Assembly: GCA_041661045.1 (NCBI GenBank) | Contig: JBAZVE010000001.1 | Coordinates: 420,001-452,000, forward strand | Reading direction: 5' to 3' | Length of the DNA: 32,000 nt | DNA from: Candidatus Saccharimonadota bacterium | GTDB taxonomy: Bacteria; Patescibacteriota; Gracilibacteria; UBA1369; 2-02-FULL-48-14 | Part shown: positions 5,339 to 28,005 of the stretch, piece after piece | How the letters are laid out: every line of letters starts with the position of its first letter | Position numbering within the stretch: the first letter of the stretch is position 1 | Made by a program: the position numbers and the translations under genes | The notes under the pieces: generated by a model | The model's database searches: none | Seen by the model: the letters and a program-made list of their open reading frames with translations, nothing else | What the model was told of the DNA's origin: nothing

Positions 5339-5377
5339 GGGGCTTGAGGCGGTGGGTTGAGGACGGTGGGTTGAGGC
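5339..5377. repeat. tandem ~14-nt repeat (GGTGGGTTGAGGnC), about 3 units
   Basis: GGTGGGTTGAGG occurs at 5351-5362 and 5365-5376. A degenerate unit GGGGCTTGAGGC lies at 5339-5350. The array sits directly upstream of the DUF4012 start codon. Confidence 0.7.
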
Positions 5378-5632
5378 GGGTGCCCGGTAGGCTTGTGAGG
5401 GGCGCCGCTTGGGCTTGCCTCCATCATAAACGGCCTGATCGGGAAGGTCTAGCAGAGTTTTTTGTGGCGGAGGCGATGGTTGAGAGGGCGGCGATTGGGC
5501 CGAGCGAATGGTATGGCGGCGCCCAAAAGGTGACTACACCCTCACCGTGGTTTTTGTCATGGGGAAAGGAGCATTTGAACCTGTTAACGGGGTGGTTTTG
5601 TGATAGAATGGAGTTTCAATAACCCCCTCGCT

Positions 5633-6451
5633 ATGACCGACATTGAACTCTATAGAAAAGCTAAGTTTTTTGGAAAGAATGCTCTCTTGTGGCGGAGGAA
5701 GTTTATGGGCTTGCTGCCGGAGGTGCAGCGGAGGCGACTCTATGAGAAGCGCGGCTTCGGGTCCATTTTTGAATTTTCTTTTAAGTTGGCCGGTTTGAGT
5801 GAAGAGCAAGTGAGAAGGGTTTTACAGCTGGAGAGGAAGTTTGAGGGGGTGCCTGTTTTGAAGGAGCTGCTGGAGAGTGGAGCAGTGAGTGTGAATAAAC
5901 TGGCGAGGGTGGCTTCTATTGCGACTGTGGCGAACCAGGAGGACTTGGCGGAAGCGGTGAGGGTTTTGCCCAAAAGCGCAGTGGAAACTTTGGTGAGAGA
6001 TGAGCGATTTCAAAAATCAAATGGCTTATTTAAGCCACAAATTGAAGTAAAATCTGTGCCCGGGCACTTGAACTTGGATGAAAAAGTTGTGGGCCGCCTG
6101 TTGGAGCTGCAGGGGAAAGGCATAGACCTCAATGCAATGATGATGGAAATGTTGGACCGAAGGGAGCAAGAAATTGCAGAGGAAAAAGTGGCTATTGCGG
6201 AGGATTTGCCTGAAACGCAGTCGCGACATGTGCCTGTGCGAACCAAGAAAGTATTGCGGAAGGAACACGGCACTAAGTGCTCCATCGCCAGCTGCAGGAG
6301 GCCGGCGGAACAGCTGCACCACACGCAAACCTTTGCCCTGAGCCACCGCCACGATCCGCACTATCTCGCGCCGCTCTGTAAAGAGCACCACATTTTGGCG
6401 CATTCGGTAAATCTGAAAGTGTGGGAGAGAAGGGTGGAGGCGATCAGTTGA
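5633..6451 (+). CDS. HNH endonuclease domain protein
   Basis: C-terminal HNH-type motif CSIASCRRPAEQLHHTQTFALSHRHDPHYLAPLCKEHHILAH, with a helical N-terminal domain. ATG 5633 is preferred over GTG 5600. An extended -10 TGATAGAAT lies at 5601-5609. Confidence 0.8.
   Translation: MTDIELYRKAKFFGKNALLWRRKFMGLLPEVQRRRLYEKRGFGSIFEFSFKLAGLSEEQVRRVLQLERKFEGVPVLKELLESGAVSVNKLARVASIATVANQEDLAEAVRVLPKSAVETLVRDERFQKSNGLFKPQIEVKSVPGHLNLDEKVVGRLLELQGKGIDLNAMMMEMLDRREQEIAEEKVAIAEDLPETQSRHVPVRTKKVLRKEHGTKCSIASCRRPAEQLHHTQTFALSHRHDPHYLAPLCKEHHILAHSVNLKVWERRVEAIS
6020..6073 (+). repeat. 54-nt double-hairpin repeat, copy 1 (in frame within the HNH gene)
   Basis: AATGGCTTATTTAAGCCACAAATTGAAGTAAAATCTGTGCCCGGGCAC matches 27849-27796 on the minus strand at 40 of the first 48 nt (hand alignment). 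Hairpins are TGGCTTA-TT-TAAGCCA and GTGCC-CG-GGCAC. Confidence 0.8.
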
Positions 6452-18268: not shown

Positions 18269-18330
18269 GATTTCACCTTGTCGGCTGCAACCTGTGTGAG
18301 TTCCTCCACTTGCGCGGTTGCAGCGATGAG
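18265..18330 (-). pseudogene. vapC (PIN toxin) 3-prime gene fragment
   Basis: The minus strand reads LIAATAQVEELTQVAADKVKS*, compared with intact VapC LIAATAQVEGLTLVTADKDF. About 43 of 54 nt are identical to 19766-19713 by hand alignment. No N-terminal part is present. Confidence 0.6.
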
Positions 18331-19666: not shown

Positions 19667-20038
19667 TCAGGCACGGATCAAGTTCACTTTGAGCCCTTTG
19701 ATTTTCTTGAAATCCTTGTCCGCGGTGACCAGGGTGAGCCCCTCCACTTGCGCGGTCGCGGCGATAAGGAGATCTTTGAATTTGAGCTTGTACTGTTTTT
19801 GGAGTTTTACTGCCGCTTCGACGATTTCCAGACGAATATCCAAGGGTGCTGTCTCTTTCAACTTGCTTCTTATCTCCTTTTCCTCCGCTTCACTACGGGC
19901 TCCGACCAAGAACTCAAAATGTGAGATCACGCTTGTAAAAAAATACTCTCGATGAAGGCTGAGCAGAGTACTTGCAATACTTTCTCGCCCTTCAAAGAGA
20001 TAAATGAGGATGTTCGTGTCTAAAATATATTCTTCCAT
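19667..20038 (-). CDS. vapC: PIN-domain toxin VapC
   Basis: 123 aa with N-terminal ILDTNILIY (catalytic Asp) and C-terminal LIAATAQVEGLTLVTADKDF. Confidence 0.88.
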   Translation of the reverse strand: MEEYILDTNILIYLFEGRESIASTLLSLHREYFFTSVISHFEFLVGARSEAEEKEIRSKLKETAPLDIRLEIVEAAVKLQKQYKLKFKDLLIAATAQVEGLTLVTADKDFKKIKGLKVNLIRA

Positions 20039-21166: not shown

Positions 21167-21220
21167 ACATATGTGCGCACGCACAGATTTTTCTTCGATC
21201 GTTGTTTATGCGAACTTATT
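21167..21220 (-). repeat. 54-nt double-hairpin repeat, copy 2 (degenerate, intergenic)
   Basis: TGTGCGCACGCACAGATTTT (21172-21191) is identical to 27801-27820. About 37 of 54 nt match the dxr copy overall, and the hairpin-1 half has decayed. It overlaps the stop codon of the 335-aa gene. Confidence 0.7.
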
Positions 21221-22223
21221 GAACTTCACCCACTATGAGGGAAAGGTCTTCTCTAATAGCGCCAGTCCAGTACTTTAAATCTTCTGGAGAGATCCCGTCT
21301 CCCAGCCTTCGGTATACCCCTGTCTGGAGCTCGCGGTTGAGAGTGAGTTCCCTCTCGGTTTCAGGTCCAATGTTCCCTATGAAGACAAAGCCGTGTCTCT
21401 TATCTTCTTCGCTCAGAGCCCCTGCTCGTGCTTTGGCGGATTCAATGGCCTTATCCCAACTGTCATAAGGCCCATAATGATTGAAGAATCTGGAGCAGCT
21501 CTTGTCTTCTTTATCTGGGAACAGATCCGTACAGTCTGTACTTTGGAGTGCGGCCAAATATATGTCTTCTGTTTCTCTATAGTCGGGGTCCGCGAGCATT
21601 GCGGCGTAGTCTTCCGCTGCTTGGAGCCAAACTGCGACTTGTCCTTTTTCTTCGGGAGAATAGGCCTTAAGATGGGCTTCAACATGGGGCCTTGCCCAAG
21701 CCCAGAGCTCTTCCTGTTTCTCGCGATCATGCCCCACTCCACCTTTTGCAAGTCCGTAGGATATACCGACTCCCGGGCCTTTGATTGAAAGATCTTGCCC
21801 CTTTGTGAAGTCTTCGCGCCGGGTGCTATCTAGAACTGCTGTGACCATTTCATGCCACTCCACTGAATCGGGAGTGAGGATGGTTTTTCCCCCACTATTT
21901 GTCTTTACTCGTGGCTTGTCCACCTTCGGAGCTGGCATGAAGTCCTTTACGCCGTCGCAATCGTCGTCTTTCCCATTGGGGTCGATATCTGCTTGGGAAG
22001 GGTTGATCAATGGATCGGCATCATTACAGTCCCCCGGCTGTTTTGCGAGCCGCCCCGTATGCTTTCTCACTTCACCTACTGTTTCTATTCTGTCTCCAGT
22101 CCCATATCCATCCTGATCTGCGTCTAAATAAAAATTGCCTCCAGCGGCTTTAGTTTCATCAGTATCTGAGCAGGCGGGCCCGGACAGTGTTGCCATGAAC
22201 AGGGCAGCTTGGGCTAATTTCAT
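21216..22223 (-). CDS. secreted protein with MopE-like putative metal-binding motif
   Basis: N-terminal signal-like MKLAQAALFMATLSGPACSD. DADQDGYG...DCNDADPLINP...DDDCDG fits the putative metal-binding motif (PF11617-like). The C-terminal 220 aa are unassigned. Confidence 0.6.
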   Translation of the reverse strand: MKLAQAALFMATLSGPACSDTDETKAAGGNFYLDADQDGYGTGDRIETVGEVRKHTGRLAKQPGDCNDADPLINPSQADIDPNGKDDDCDGVKDFMPAPKVDKPRVKTNSGGKTILTPDSVEWHEMVTAVLDSTRREDFTKGQDLSIKGPGVGISYGLAKGGVGHDREKQEELWAWARPHVEAHLKAYSPEEKGQVAVWLQAAEDYAAMLADPDYRETEDIYLAALQSTDCTDLFPDKEDKSCSRFFNHYGPYDSWDKAIESAKARAGALSEEDKRHGFVFIGNIGPETERELTLNRELQTGVYRRLGDGISPEDLKYWTGAIREDLSLIVGEVQ

Positions 22224-26496: not shown

Positions 26497-26862
26497 ATGA
26501 AAAATACTTTTCTTCGTTTCCTTTTTGCTTGCGCTGCCTGGCTGACGGTTGTTTTGATTTTCGTTCTTCTGCCGCTTGGTTTTAATGTGTACGACTCTTA
26601 CCCCGCTTTTTCCGTGAATATTTTCTTCCTTCTTTGTCTCCCTTTTTTTGCGGGTGGCAGTGTGTTCCAAGCAATTTTTCGAGGAAAACTTCGAGCGGTT
26701 GGCTTTTTGTCTTTTTTTATCGTCCCCATCCTCCTCCTTTGGTTTGCCGTTGGGCTGCCGAATGGACTCCATGGATTTGAATTCTTGGTCATAGCTGCGC
26801 TAACCCTCAGCATCGGCTCCTCTACTTTCCTTGGAGCTTATGCGTACCGGCGGTTCGGATGA
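26497..26862 (+). CDS. membrane protein, about 4 TM helices
   Basis: 121 aa, strongly hydrophobic throughout (FLFACAAWLTVVLIFVLLPLGF...). It has a 63-nt convergent overlap with the dxr 3-prime end. Confidence 0.6.
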   Translation: MKNTFLRFLFACAAWLTVVLIFVLLPLGFNVYDSYPAFSVNIFFLLCLPFFAGGSVFQAIFRGKLRAVGFLSFFIVPILLLWFAVGLPNGLHGFEFLVIAALTLSIGSSTFLGAYAYRRFG

Positions 26863-28005
26863 ATGATGGGTGATCTTTTCATGAAACTCCAGTAGCTCCT
26901 CCAGAGTGCTCGGAGGCGTTTCCCAGAGCCAGCGGTCCAGGCCGGCTTCGATGAAATCATAAATCCCAAGGAAGGTCATTTCGCCGCGAAGAAAACGGGC
27001 CACGGCGATGTCGTTGAGGGCATTTAAAATGATGGGGAAGTTGGGGTTGCCCGCGTGAAGCTTCAGCCATTTGAGGGGGCGGAAGGTCTCGCTGTCGGGC
27101 GGGGTGAAATCCATTTGGCTTTTGGGCGCGCGCTGGATGGGCCAGGGGCATTTGGGCTGTTCGGGGTAGTGGAGGGCGTAGGAAATAAACAGCCGCATGT
27201 CGTTTTGTGTGATGTGCATGCGGGTGGCGCCGGTTTTTGTGTGCACCATGCTGTGCACCAAACTTTGGCGATGGACCCTAATGTGGATGTCTTTGAGCGG
27301 AATGTCGAAGAGATTGTGGACCTCGTAGACTTCCAGCACTTTGTTGATGAGAGTGGCGGAATCGATGGAGACTTTTGGGCCCATTTTCCAGGTTGGGTGG
27401 GCGAGGGCCTGGGCGGGTGTGACGAGGGCGAGGTCGGCGGTGGTTTTGCCAAAAAATGGGCCGCCGGAGCAGGTGAGGGTGACGGAGGAAATTGGGTTGT
27501 TTTTTGTGGGTGCGGCTTCAGTGAGGAGTTGCCAAATGGCGGAGGCTTCGCTGTCGAGCGGGCGGATTTCGGCGCCAGTTCTTTGCGCTTCCGCTCGGAG
27601 GAATTTCCCTGCGATGGCGAGGGATTCTTTGTTGGCGGAGAGGAGAATTTTTGGGCTGGTCGGTGTGGAGGCGCGCACGGCGGCGAGCGAAATGGCGAGG
27701 CCGTCGAAGCCGGGCACGGCATTGACGACGAAATCGGCGCGAGCGATGAGGTCGGCGACTTGCTCGGGGGTGGGTGCGAGAAAAGCTCCGCGTGGAAATC
27801 TGTGCGCACGCACAGATTTTGCCTCGATTTGTGGCTTACTTAAGCCATTCTCATTTAAAAACTCACCAGCTTGTTCAGCCAGTAGTTCGGCATTTTTATG
27901 CGCCGTGAGTCCCACTACTTCAAACTCACCTGGGAAGGCACGGAGCACCTCCAAGGTTTGCTTACCGATGGATCCGGTGGAGCCGAAGAGGGCTAGGGTT
28001 TTCAT
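26800..28005 (-). CDS. dxr: 1-deoxy-D-xylulose 5-phosphate reductoisomerase
   Basis: NADPH site LFGSTGSIGKQTL, LSANKESLA, and DSEASAIWQ (compare DSEHNAIFQ in E. coli). 401 aa. Carries the 18-codon repeat insert at residues 53-70. Confidence 0.93.
   Translation of the reverse strand: MKTLALFGSTGSIGKQTLEVLRAFPGEFEVVGLTAHKNAELLAEQAGEFLNENGLSKPQIEAKSVRAHRFPRGAFLAPTPEQVADLIARADFVVNAVPGFDGLAISLAAVRASTPTSPKILLSANKESLAIAGKFLRAEAQRTGAEIRPLDSEASAIWQLLTEAAPTKNNPISSVTLTCSGGPFFGKTTADLALVTPAQALAHPTWKMGPKVSIDSATLINKVLEVYEVHNLFDIPLKDIHIRVHRQSLVHSMVHTKTGATRMHITQNDMRLFISYALHYPEQPKCPWPIQRAPKSQMDFTPPDSETFRPLKWLKLHAGNPNFPIILNALNDIAVARFLRGEMTFLGIYDFIEAGLDRWLWETPPSTLEELLEFHEKITHHSSEPPVRISSKESRGADAEG
27796..27849 (-). 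repeat. 54-nt double-hairpin repeat, copy 3 (in frame within dxr)
   Basis: The sense strand reads AATGGCTTAAGTAAGCCACAAATCGAGGCAAAATCTGTGCGTGCGCACAGATTT. Hairpins are TGGCTTA-AG-TAAGCCA and AAATCTGTGCG-TG-CGCACAGATTT (11-bp stem). It encodes NGLSKPQIEAKSVRAHRF. Confidence 0.85.

Follow-up and report, generated by a model that had tools for sequence, protein, structure and literature searches.

The window analysed here is a 32,000-nucleotide (nt) stretch of DNA from a Candidatus Saccharimonadota bacterium (positions 420,001 to 452,000 of contig JBAZVE010000001.1), whose 1.32-Mb genome is of the Peregrinibacteria type within the candidate phyla radiation (CPR). It contains three copies, the third only half preserved, of a 54-nt element built of two palindromic hairpins. 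One lies in frame in the gene for an HNH-family protein (5633-6451, plus strand; 272 residues, hereafter P0001) and another in frame in the unrelated gene dxr (26800-28005, minus strand; identified with Pfam). We found that the two variable base pairs of the second hairpin (H2) track two residues of the HNH protein encoded by the same gene. It is probable, in our view, that the gene of the HNH-family nuclease contains a site which the nuclease itself reads, and that the copies elsewhere derive from that site.

Copy 1 of the element (6020-6073, plus strand) forms codons 130-147 of the HNH gene, in its linker-coding part, and is translated as NGLFKPQIEVKSVPGHLN. Its H2 (6056-6067), GTGCC-CG-GGCAC, is a perfect 12-nt palindrome, GTGCCCGGGCAC. 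At the DNA level, H2 copies follow the form xTGCyCGy'GCAx' and are self-complementary from the central CG outwards over 12-22 nt, with one outer (x:x') and one inner (y:y') variable pair. We compared each protein column of 270 HNH proteins with the H2 variant of the same gene. The association was strongest for residue 114 (mutual information 1.416 bits, z 74.6) and residue 62 (0.754 bits, z 42.7). All other columns gave a median z of 0.1-0.3, and shared ancestry is therefore not the cause of the coupling. Residue 114 tracks the inner pair: Lys goes with the centre CCCGGG in 85 of 85 proteins, Gln with CG[C/T]GCG in 65 of 67, and Asn, Arg, Ser, Cys or Thr with CACGTG in 40 of 42. Residue 62 tracks the outer pair, which is G...C in 79 of the 82 proteins with Arg and C/T...G/A in most of those with Thr, Leu, Asn, Met, Val or Ala. 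Position 94 refines the outer-pair call, since Gln at this position accompanied the outer type that encodes L..Q in all 30 cases. In the window gene, codon 114 (AAA, Lys; 5972-5974, plus strand) and codon 62 (AGG, Arg; 5816-5818, plus strand) go with the CCCGGG centre and the G...C outer pair of its own H2. Arg or Lys with G:C and Asn with A:T are usual contacts in the major groove.

Protein and site have changed together many times. On a neighbour-joining tree built from the remaining protein columns, the centre type underwent 72 changes and the residue-114 class 74, with only 76 for the joint state; the corresponding counts for the outer type, the residue-62 class and their joint state were 49, 39 and 52. 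Among nearest neighbours with different centres, residue 114 differed in 95 of 98 pairs, against 2 of 90 pairs with the same centre. Source-genome paralogues with 80-85% identity to P0001 are split between Lys114 with the centre peptide PG and Gln114 with RA. The 12 genes for which DNA was available follow the code, with one hybrid site (locus L005, K114/H115, centre CACGGG). Arg62 is specified by AGG, CGT, CGC, CGA and CGG in different genes, so the coupling is to the amino acid rather than to the nucleotide. A direct nucleotide-level pairing of codon 114 or 62 with H2 was rejected on the same ground and because different codon positions change. Control columns (the loop residue, four spacer residues, the residue that follows H2, and whether hairpin 1 is present) reached a z of at most 10, which reflects background association only.

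Two groups of proteins depart from the common site types. Proteins with Thr62 and Ala94 (P0023, P0028, P0035, P0042, P0043 and others) have asymmetric sites, L..H, with one half of each type, and they look like intermediates between R62/A94 (V..H) and T62/Q94 (L..Q). Loci L018-L026, from genome JBBAAK01 / Ga0265292, include seven near-identical HNH paralogues with Arg at position 114. Their site is an odd-length perfect palindrome with one central base fewer, CTGTGCC-C-GGCACAG, encoding KSVPGT, and this combination may represent a further specificity class.

The constraint on the element acts on nucleic acid. Its codons are fixed far from the background, with Pro as CCA in 14 of 15 copies (background 0.17), Lys as AAG in 12 of 12 (0.28) and Gly as GGC in 13 of 13, and this fixation persists in copies found without specifying hairpin 1. 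The earlier note on this DNA had held that a lack of further copies, together with the same peptide in unrelated codons in distant HNH homologues, would mark the segment as ancestral protein sequence; the fixed codons are the opposite pattern. Paired changes maintain the palindrome. The outer pair of H2 (positions 7-18) is GC in 18 copies, UA in 6 and CG in 3, and is never unpaired; the inner pair (11-14) is CG in 12, AU in 8 and GC in 6. The same holds for the encoded peptides. In 100 HNH proteins the outer peptide pair is V..H in 39 and L..Q in 41, with 8 mixed (7 L..H and 1 V..Q), and the centre is PG in 36, RA in 33 and HV in 15 versus 9 mixed. Among Dxr proteins, outer pairs are concordant in 24 and odd in 2 (L..R and A..Y). 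It is hardly credible, in view of these counts, that the peptide NGLxKPxIExKSVxxH is a short functional motif common to the host proteins. Its frame is the same in every genic copy and its N, G, P, E, K and S residues are conserved, but it changes exactly as the palindrome demands (V..H or L..Q; PG, RA or HV) while synonymous codons stay fixed. Moreover, intergenic copies exist, the peptide is the sole disordered stretch of the HNH protein model, and close dxr orthologues dispense with it. The codon and palindrome data effectively refute the peptide motif.

A second possibility is that both hairpins fold in mRNA or in a 3' untranslated region (UTR), where they would terminate transcription, affect RNA stability or bind a protein. 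The dxr copy does fold well (-21.9 kcal/mol, z -4.1 relative to shuffles), copy 3 has a terminator-like score on either strand, intergenic copies tend to lie within about 60 nt of stop codons, hairpin 1 shows G.U-compatible changes, and genic copies are all in sense orientation. However, pairs 11-14 and 12-13 of H2 would leave a loop of 0-2 nt, which is impossible for an RNA hairpin, and the pairing through the centre therefore points to duplex DNA. In addition, the HNH copy and the third copy fold no better than shuffled sequences (z -1.0 and +0.7), intergenic copies occur in both orientations, and the coupled residues include Arg, Lys, Gln and Asn, as in the readout of duplex DNA. No Rfam family reached its gathering score in the window, where local matches were below threshold and no better than chance. 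We regard an RNA-level element as very unlikely, and hairpin stability was rejected as the constraint. Because its two variable base pairs track two residues of the same gene's HNH protein, the constraint on H2 is best read as protein recognition of dyad-symmetric DNA. Of the earlier note's proposal of selection on nucleic-acid structure rather than on the peptide, the nucleic-acid constraint thus stood and the hairpin reading of H2 did not.

The three copies in the window agree closely with their first description. The HNH-gene and dxr segments (6020-6067, plus strand, and 27849-27802, minus strand) form a 48-nt pair with 40 identical positions (83%). Patterns made from either half, with up to three mismatches, matched the reported sites only, and gave no match in 100 dinucleotide-preserving shuffles. 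Hairpin 1 of copy 1 (6022-6037) has the arms TGGCTTA (6022-6028) and TAAGCCA (6031-6037) around a TT loop; the dxr copy has the same 7-bp arms (27847-27841 and 27838-27832) around AG. Across 15 copies, the stem sequence of hairpin 1 is nearly invariant and the loop variable. Its region in copy 1 (6018-6057) resembles the Rfam histone 3' UTR stem-loop at 17.3 bits, against a gathering score of 34, which we judged a chance resemblance. Copy 2 (27796-27849, minus strand) is translated in frame as NGLSKPQIEAKSVRAHRF, and its H2 core, GTGCG-TG-CGCAC (27813-27802), extends to a 24-nt dyad, AAATCTGTGCGTGCGCACAGATTT (27819-27796), whose sole break is a central G.T. Copy 3 (21167-21221, minus strand) overlaps the stop codon of an open reading frame (ORF; 21216-22223, minus strand) and is otherwise intergenic. 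Its H2 half is intact, with GTGCGTGCGCAC at 21184-21173, the same type as in dxr. This half (21199-21169, 31 nt) is 90% identical to the dxr copy, whereas the hairpin-1 half is degenerate, with about 14 of 28 positions matching by our own count. In the covariance model, copies 1, 2 and 3 scored 69.6, 74.9 and 28.6 bits, the last with an E-value of 1.5e-4. The claims of the earlier note about the match between the two genic segments, the identical stems with different loops and the shared frame within unrelated genes were therefore accurate, and the compensatory change that it noticed in H2 proved general by the pair counts across copies. Its degenerate third copy is degenerate in the hairpin-1 half, and well preserved in the other.

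P0001 comprises a helical N-terminal domain (residues 1-129), the disordered loop encoded by the element and a C-terminal HNH domain. Residues 209-258 match PHROG HNH families (E 1.5e-6), and this match, together with the family-wide invariance of C216, C221, H229, H230, H240, C249, H252, H253 and H257, supports an HNH motif of the beta-beta-alpha-metal kind. No sequence-level match to P0001 was found in Pfam (including DUF222 and HNH), NCBIfam or the PDB. The family is large: clustering at 90% identity gives 1039 members, with a 100% match to P0001, and clustering at 50% gives 4,722 representatives. It has at least six paralogues in the source genome and at least nine in another. Its linker, from the conserved motif VRDE to the next conserved helix, ranges from about 15 to 190 residues and is unalignable, and yet the element occupies one fixed position in it. 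The exact H2 peptide is present in 90 of 150 representatives and the hairpin-1 peptide in 46 of 150, with a fixed spacing between the two. Every family member examined has an intact cognate palindrome inside its ORF. In the AlphaFold model of P0001 (mean pLDDT 88.9), residues 130-145 are the only stretch with a pLDDT below 50, and they are exactly NGLFKPQIEVKSVPGH.

The HNH gene is part of a longer repeated unit. Upstream of it is a conserved promoter-like leader of about 130-170 nt, found in the window (5529-5611) and at L018, L023 and L026, in which GGTGA...TCACC (5529-5546) forms a small inverted repeat and TGTGATAGAAT, within 5591-5611, resembles an extended -10 sequence. Homology between paralogues begins at the leader and gives out close to the stop codon, which makes the unit that is repeated a self-contained cassette some 1.1 kb long. 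Just 5' of these cassettes we also observed tandem repeats whose sequence differs between genomes: GGTGGGTTGAGG occurs twice in the window (5353-5376), and units of about 22 nt, GTGCATTAATTGGCGCCGAAA, occur at L018 and L023.

To our scans of one genome per species, with a pattern fitting all three copies, 16 loci responded. Thirteen were in metagenome-assembled genomes labelled Peribacteria, Peregrinibacteria or 'Gracilibacteria', and three in unrelated phyla, in keeping with our estimate of some four chance matches. A metagenome scan with a second pattern added 10 loci, mostly from one genome. On these matches, the element family is apparently restricted to Peregrinibacteria (CPR) genomes. 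The scan of viral contigs returned no element match, and a phage origin was rejected on this ground. In 228 kb, the covariance model detected only two copies apart from its seeds, and an unfiltered search of another 93 kb gave no full copy standing alone; the family is therefore of low copy number. A padded peptide-profile search for additional host proteins returned only two small ORFs, and GTGCTCGAGCAC, in a long ORF of L026, was judged native or due to chance.

Genic copies lie on one strand and in one reading frame in every case. Their hosts are many HNH-family members, dxr in two species, a YdeN-type serine hydrolase and, with H2 alone, ispE in two species. In the serine hydrolase, the insert splits the Pfam Ser_hydrolase match and a second H2 follows the element. 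Intergenic copies occur in both orientations, most of them at or within about 60 nt of stop codons, and may have an additional role in transcription termination; genic copies lack an intrinsic-terminator context. Two of these (L022 885-939 and L019 6410-6433) have an altered yet self-complementary H2 (GCGTCTGCCCGGGCAGAC...) in which the flanking pairs have switched too (TCTG to GTCTG); the one at L022 runs over the stop codon of a gene with a Bro-N domain. With the element masked, flanks of the copies outside HNH genes have no homology to HNH proteins, on which ground the idea that solo copies are relics of decayed HNH genes was rejected. Genome-specific homogenisation of copies was also rejected, as H2 types are equally mixed within and between genomes; the only hint of it is KPQIE, common to dxr and three HNH paralogues of the window genome.

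This distribution raises the possibility of an independent selfish palindromic element, like a Rickettsia palindromic element (RPE) or a miniature inverted-repeat transposable element (MITE), which was moved by a transposase, landed in the HNH family, dxr and other places, and survives in the stop-free frame. RPEs are about 150 bp long, with ten families and 44 insertions in R. conorii, and sit in frame in unrelated genes, including metabolic ones, and so introduce a conserved peptide at places that the protein tolerates (PMC10969869). Occurrence in unrelated genes and intergenic sites with flanks unrelated to HNH genes, variable presence among dxr orthologues, in-frame fusion as in RPEs and the presence of TAA in frames +1 and +2 of the element would all fit such an origin. 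Against it, H2 variants track HNH residues 62 and 114, which would be unexpected for an unrelated passenger, and the element has a fixed place throughout the HNH family, also where the linker around it is unalignable. Its density is also low. We found no terminal inverted repeats, the two hairpins being internal palindromes rather than mutually inverted ends, and no consistent direct repeat in the sequence flanking the copies that would indicate a target-site duplication. The CAAAAT that precedes both hairpins was considered as a target duplication, or as deletion end-points that yield the H2-only forms, and rejected because its spacing is 31 nt and out of frame. An RPE- or MITE-like origin is thus quite unlikely.

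The dxr site shows gain and loss of the element, and ispE has H2 in some species only. We aligned 84 Dxr proteins, 80 Peregrinibacteria-type orthologues and 4 distant ones. The site between 'EF' and 'FLAP', where the window element lies, has five states: the full element, H2 only (SVHVH, SLPGQ or SLHVQ), two H2 units, remnants, or nothing. These states are interleaved on the tree from the rest of the protein, and in the DNA of four dxr orthologues palindromes of different sequence stand in the same place. Relative to solved Dxr structures, most of the strand-helix segment after 'EF' is gone from the Peregrinibacteria proteins, and the element sits at the shortened junction. In ispE of two lake Peribacteria, TTGCCCGGGCAA is in frame (ESLPGQ; L029 13684-13707 and L030 6822-6845), in place of the loop ADGIDPA of the window and L028 enzymes, which have no H2. 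A public gene call on the opposite strand of L029 (13411-14211), over the ispE H2, is probably spurious. The window dxr copy and copy 3 both carry the H2 type of the resident paralogues P0003 and P0004 (Q114, R62).

The N-terminal domain offers a structural lead to how H2 may be read. Modelled alone, its 129 residues gave a pLDDT of 97 and a pTM of 0.85, and the ten best fold matches in the PDB were all ParB or Noc, with, for example, a TM score of 0.63 to the Noc DNA-binding domain on its site. The E-values of these matches (0.06-0.9) are not significant, and the ParB/Noc likeness is therefore a lead and not a claim of membership. The ParB site parS is TGTTTCAC-GTGAAACA and the Noc-binding site (NBS) is TATTTCCC-GGGAAATA, with the central hexamers CACGTG and CCCGGG, respectively, and four residues set the preference (PMC7383237). 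The position that distinguishes the two corresponds to the inner variable pair of H2 (PMC7383237). Both sites are perfect palindromes of about 16 bp, bound by a helix-turn-helix dimer whose specificity is set by few residues, and in H2, too, we found a dyad-symmetric duplex site in which a few residues co-vary with particular base pairs. A site of this kind can also sit in the protein's own gene: Lin and Grossman reportedly described, in 1998, a parS site inside spo0J. By contrast, the HNH family has no detectable sequence homology to ParB or Noc and is fused to an HNH nuclease. No ParB/Srx CTPase domain was detected at the N-terminus of P0001 in Pfam or NCBIfam, and the model has one long helix there. 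The family further differs in having many paralogues per genome with at least nine site types, in its outer half-site (TCTxTGC here, TGTTTC there), and in that H2 is tied to a second hairpin and spreads into ORFs.

Such a likeness also suits another explanation, in which the HNH-family protein is a ParB- or KorB-like regulator, or a roadblock, that binds H2 in its own gene, as autoregulation, and at a small regulon (genes of the methylerythritol phosphate pathway and terminators), with no role in cleavage or copying. The residue-base coupling and the fold would be expected of such an operator-binding protein, ParB-family proteins bind dispersed palindromes, and dxr and ispE are members of one operon. 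However, the catalytic Cys and His residues of the HNH domain are invariant across the family, every site is surrounded by an indel hot spot, with linkers of 15-190 residues and duplicated or partial palindromes in HNH genes and dxr, and the number of paralogues and the diversity of their specificities suggest selfishness more than regulation. The co-occurrence in dxr and ispE is a sampling effect, because the loci were fetched around dxr. We therefore regard a pure operator as unlikely.

Under the explanation that we favour, a nuclease that reads a site in its own gene, the 54-nt unit would be the 'site cassette' of a large multi-copy Peregrinibacteria family that combines a ParB/Noc-like helical DNA-binding domain with an HNH nuclease domain. 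H2 would be a dyad-symmetric duplex site, (AAATCT)xTGCyCGy'GCAx'(AGATTT), most likely read by a dimer of the N-terminal domain, with residue 62 (together with 91, 93 and 94) reading the outer pair x:x' and residue 114 (together with 115) the inner pair y:y'. Each gene would hold the site cognate to its own protein in the part coding for the disordered linker between the domains, and the protein would switch together with its site. The copies in dxr, ispE, the serine hydrolase and 3' intergenic positions would be ectopic copies of the cassette, whole or H2 alone. Those in ORFs would persist only where an in-frame, stop-free, disordered peptide is tolerated, and those past stop codons resemble bidirectional terminators. 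The tethered HNH domain may cut near the site, and break repair or gene conversion from HNH genes would then copy the cassette, or H2 alone, to ectopic places and renew it there. One guess for hairpin 1 and the conserved spacer is a fixed cleavage site or a second contact site.

We infer with good support that H2, as duplex DNA, is bound by a dimer of the N-terminal domain and that each gene holds its cognate site, and with weaker support that the HNH domain cuts near the site and that repair spreads the copies. Cutting is suggested by the invariant catalytic residues and by the indels, duplications and partial palindromes around every site in HNH genes and dxr. Copying by cutting and repair would explain why events recur at the dxr site, why sequence in dxr and ispE was replaced and not simply interrupted by an insert, and why H2-only as well as full forms occur.

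Several observations weigh against this explanation. A nuclease site within the nuclease's own gene is awkward for a cutting model, and hairpin 1 and the spacer are strongly conserved yet uncoupled to the protein. The coupling is statistical, and the switch counts on the neighbour-joining tree may be inflated by tree error. Codon 114 lies just 39-126 nt from H2, and exchange of modules between paralogues could move both together; residues 116-123, between the two, are variable but uncoupled, which argues against simple linkage, as does the distance of about 240 nt between residue 62 and H2 in the window gene. The patterns that yielded most of the DNA copies fix part of H2, a bias from which L029-L032 and all protein-level counts are free. 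Finally, the H2 type in dxr is that of a listed resident HNH protein in only two of three complete genomes, for which the lists of paralogues are incomplete.

Among the ideas of the earlier note, its RPE-like independent element is now disfavoured: terminal inverted repeats and target duplications were not found, copies are few, and the linkers of thousands of HNH-family proteins share the element as a conserved hallmark. The evidence best supports the alternative that it had put second, namely that the segment is native to the HNH family and was copied elsewhere. The functional link between nuclease and hairpins that it had likened to repetitive extragenic palindromic (REP) sequences and their REP-associated tyrosine transposases (RAYTs), and called speculation, likewise gains the best support, by way of the residue-base coupling, which is consistent with such a link.

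In concept, the system is a nuclease with a cognate repeat, as in REP/RAYT, with ParB/Noc-like recognition and RPE-like insertion, and it fails defining features of each. As with REP/RAYT, a family of short palindromic repeats and a particular nuclease gene in one genome appear to be functionally coupled, repeat variants differ from paralogue to paralogue, and intergenic copies lie near gene ends. However, RAYTs are TnpA-like enzymes of the HUH/Y1 kind that work on single-stranded hairpins and have REPs at their flanks; REPs are extragenic, imperfect and of high copy number. Here the enzyme is of the HNH type and its gene contains the site, the palindrome of H2 is perfect and of a duplex type, density is low, and most copies are genic and many in frame. 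The likeness to RPEs lies in a repeat that occurs in several unrelated loci (the HNH family, dxr, the serine hydrolase and, as H2, ispE), in frame, encoding a conserved peptide; the differences are a length of 54 nt, few copies, an unrelated sequence, a CPR host and co-variation with a partner protein. To our knowledge, no partner protein of RPEs is known. MITEs have terminal inverted repeats and flanking target-site duplications, neither of which was found here. Like HNH homing endonucleases and the actinobacterial REP13E12/DUF222-type genes, the family has a selfish-looking, multi-copy HNH gene cassette with its own promoter region, predicted sequence-specific DNA recognition and a plausible gene-conversion-like spread. 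By contrast, genes of homing endonucleases interrupt or abut their target and so destroy it, whereas the cognate site here is intact inside the ORF, and neither Pfam DUF222 nor Pfam HNH has a match here. Fungal and algal mitochondrial double-hairpin elements and GC-cluster palindromes are short two-hairpin mobile repeats, intergenic and occasionally coding; they are organellar, have unrelated sequences and lack a demonstrated co-evolving protein partner.

We found no such system described in the literature on Peregrinibacteria palindromic repeats and on REP13E12-type HNH genes. It is possible, and we suggest it tentatively, that this is an undescribed selfish system in which a ParB/Noc-like reader joined to an HNH cutter keeps its own palindrome in its ORF, diversifies along with it into many orthogonal specificities within a genome and, through cutting and repair, seeds the cassette elsewhere, including in frame in essential genes. 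If so, gene sequences by themselves would give a near-deterministic code from amino acid to base pair (Lys, Gln or Asn at one position, Arg or non-Arg at another), which documents itself through dozens of independent switches. About 70 switches in one family would be a rare natural experiment on the evolution of DNA-binding specificity. The system would also provide palindromic in-frame insertions, a problem open since RPEs, with a concrete partner and a mechanism that can be tested, explain the recurrent hypervariable linkers and odd peptide inserts in CPR housekeeping enzymes (Dxr and IspE), and constitute a compact family of programmable palindrome-specific nucleases.

Elsewhere in the window there is a separate 55-nt direct repeat, with 80% identity between 18276-18330 and 19714-19768. 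The second copy lies inside a PIN-domain gene (19667-20038, minus strand), and the repeat possibly reflects a second, related toxin gene or a fragment of one.

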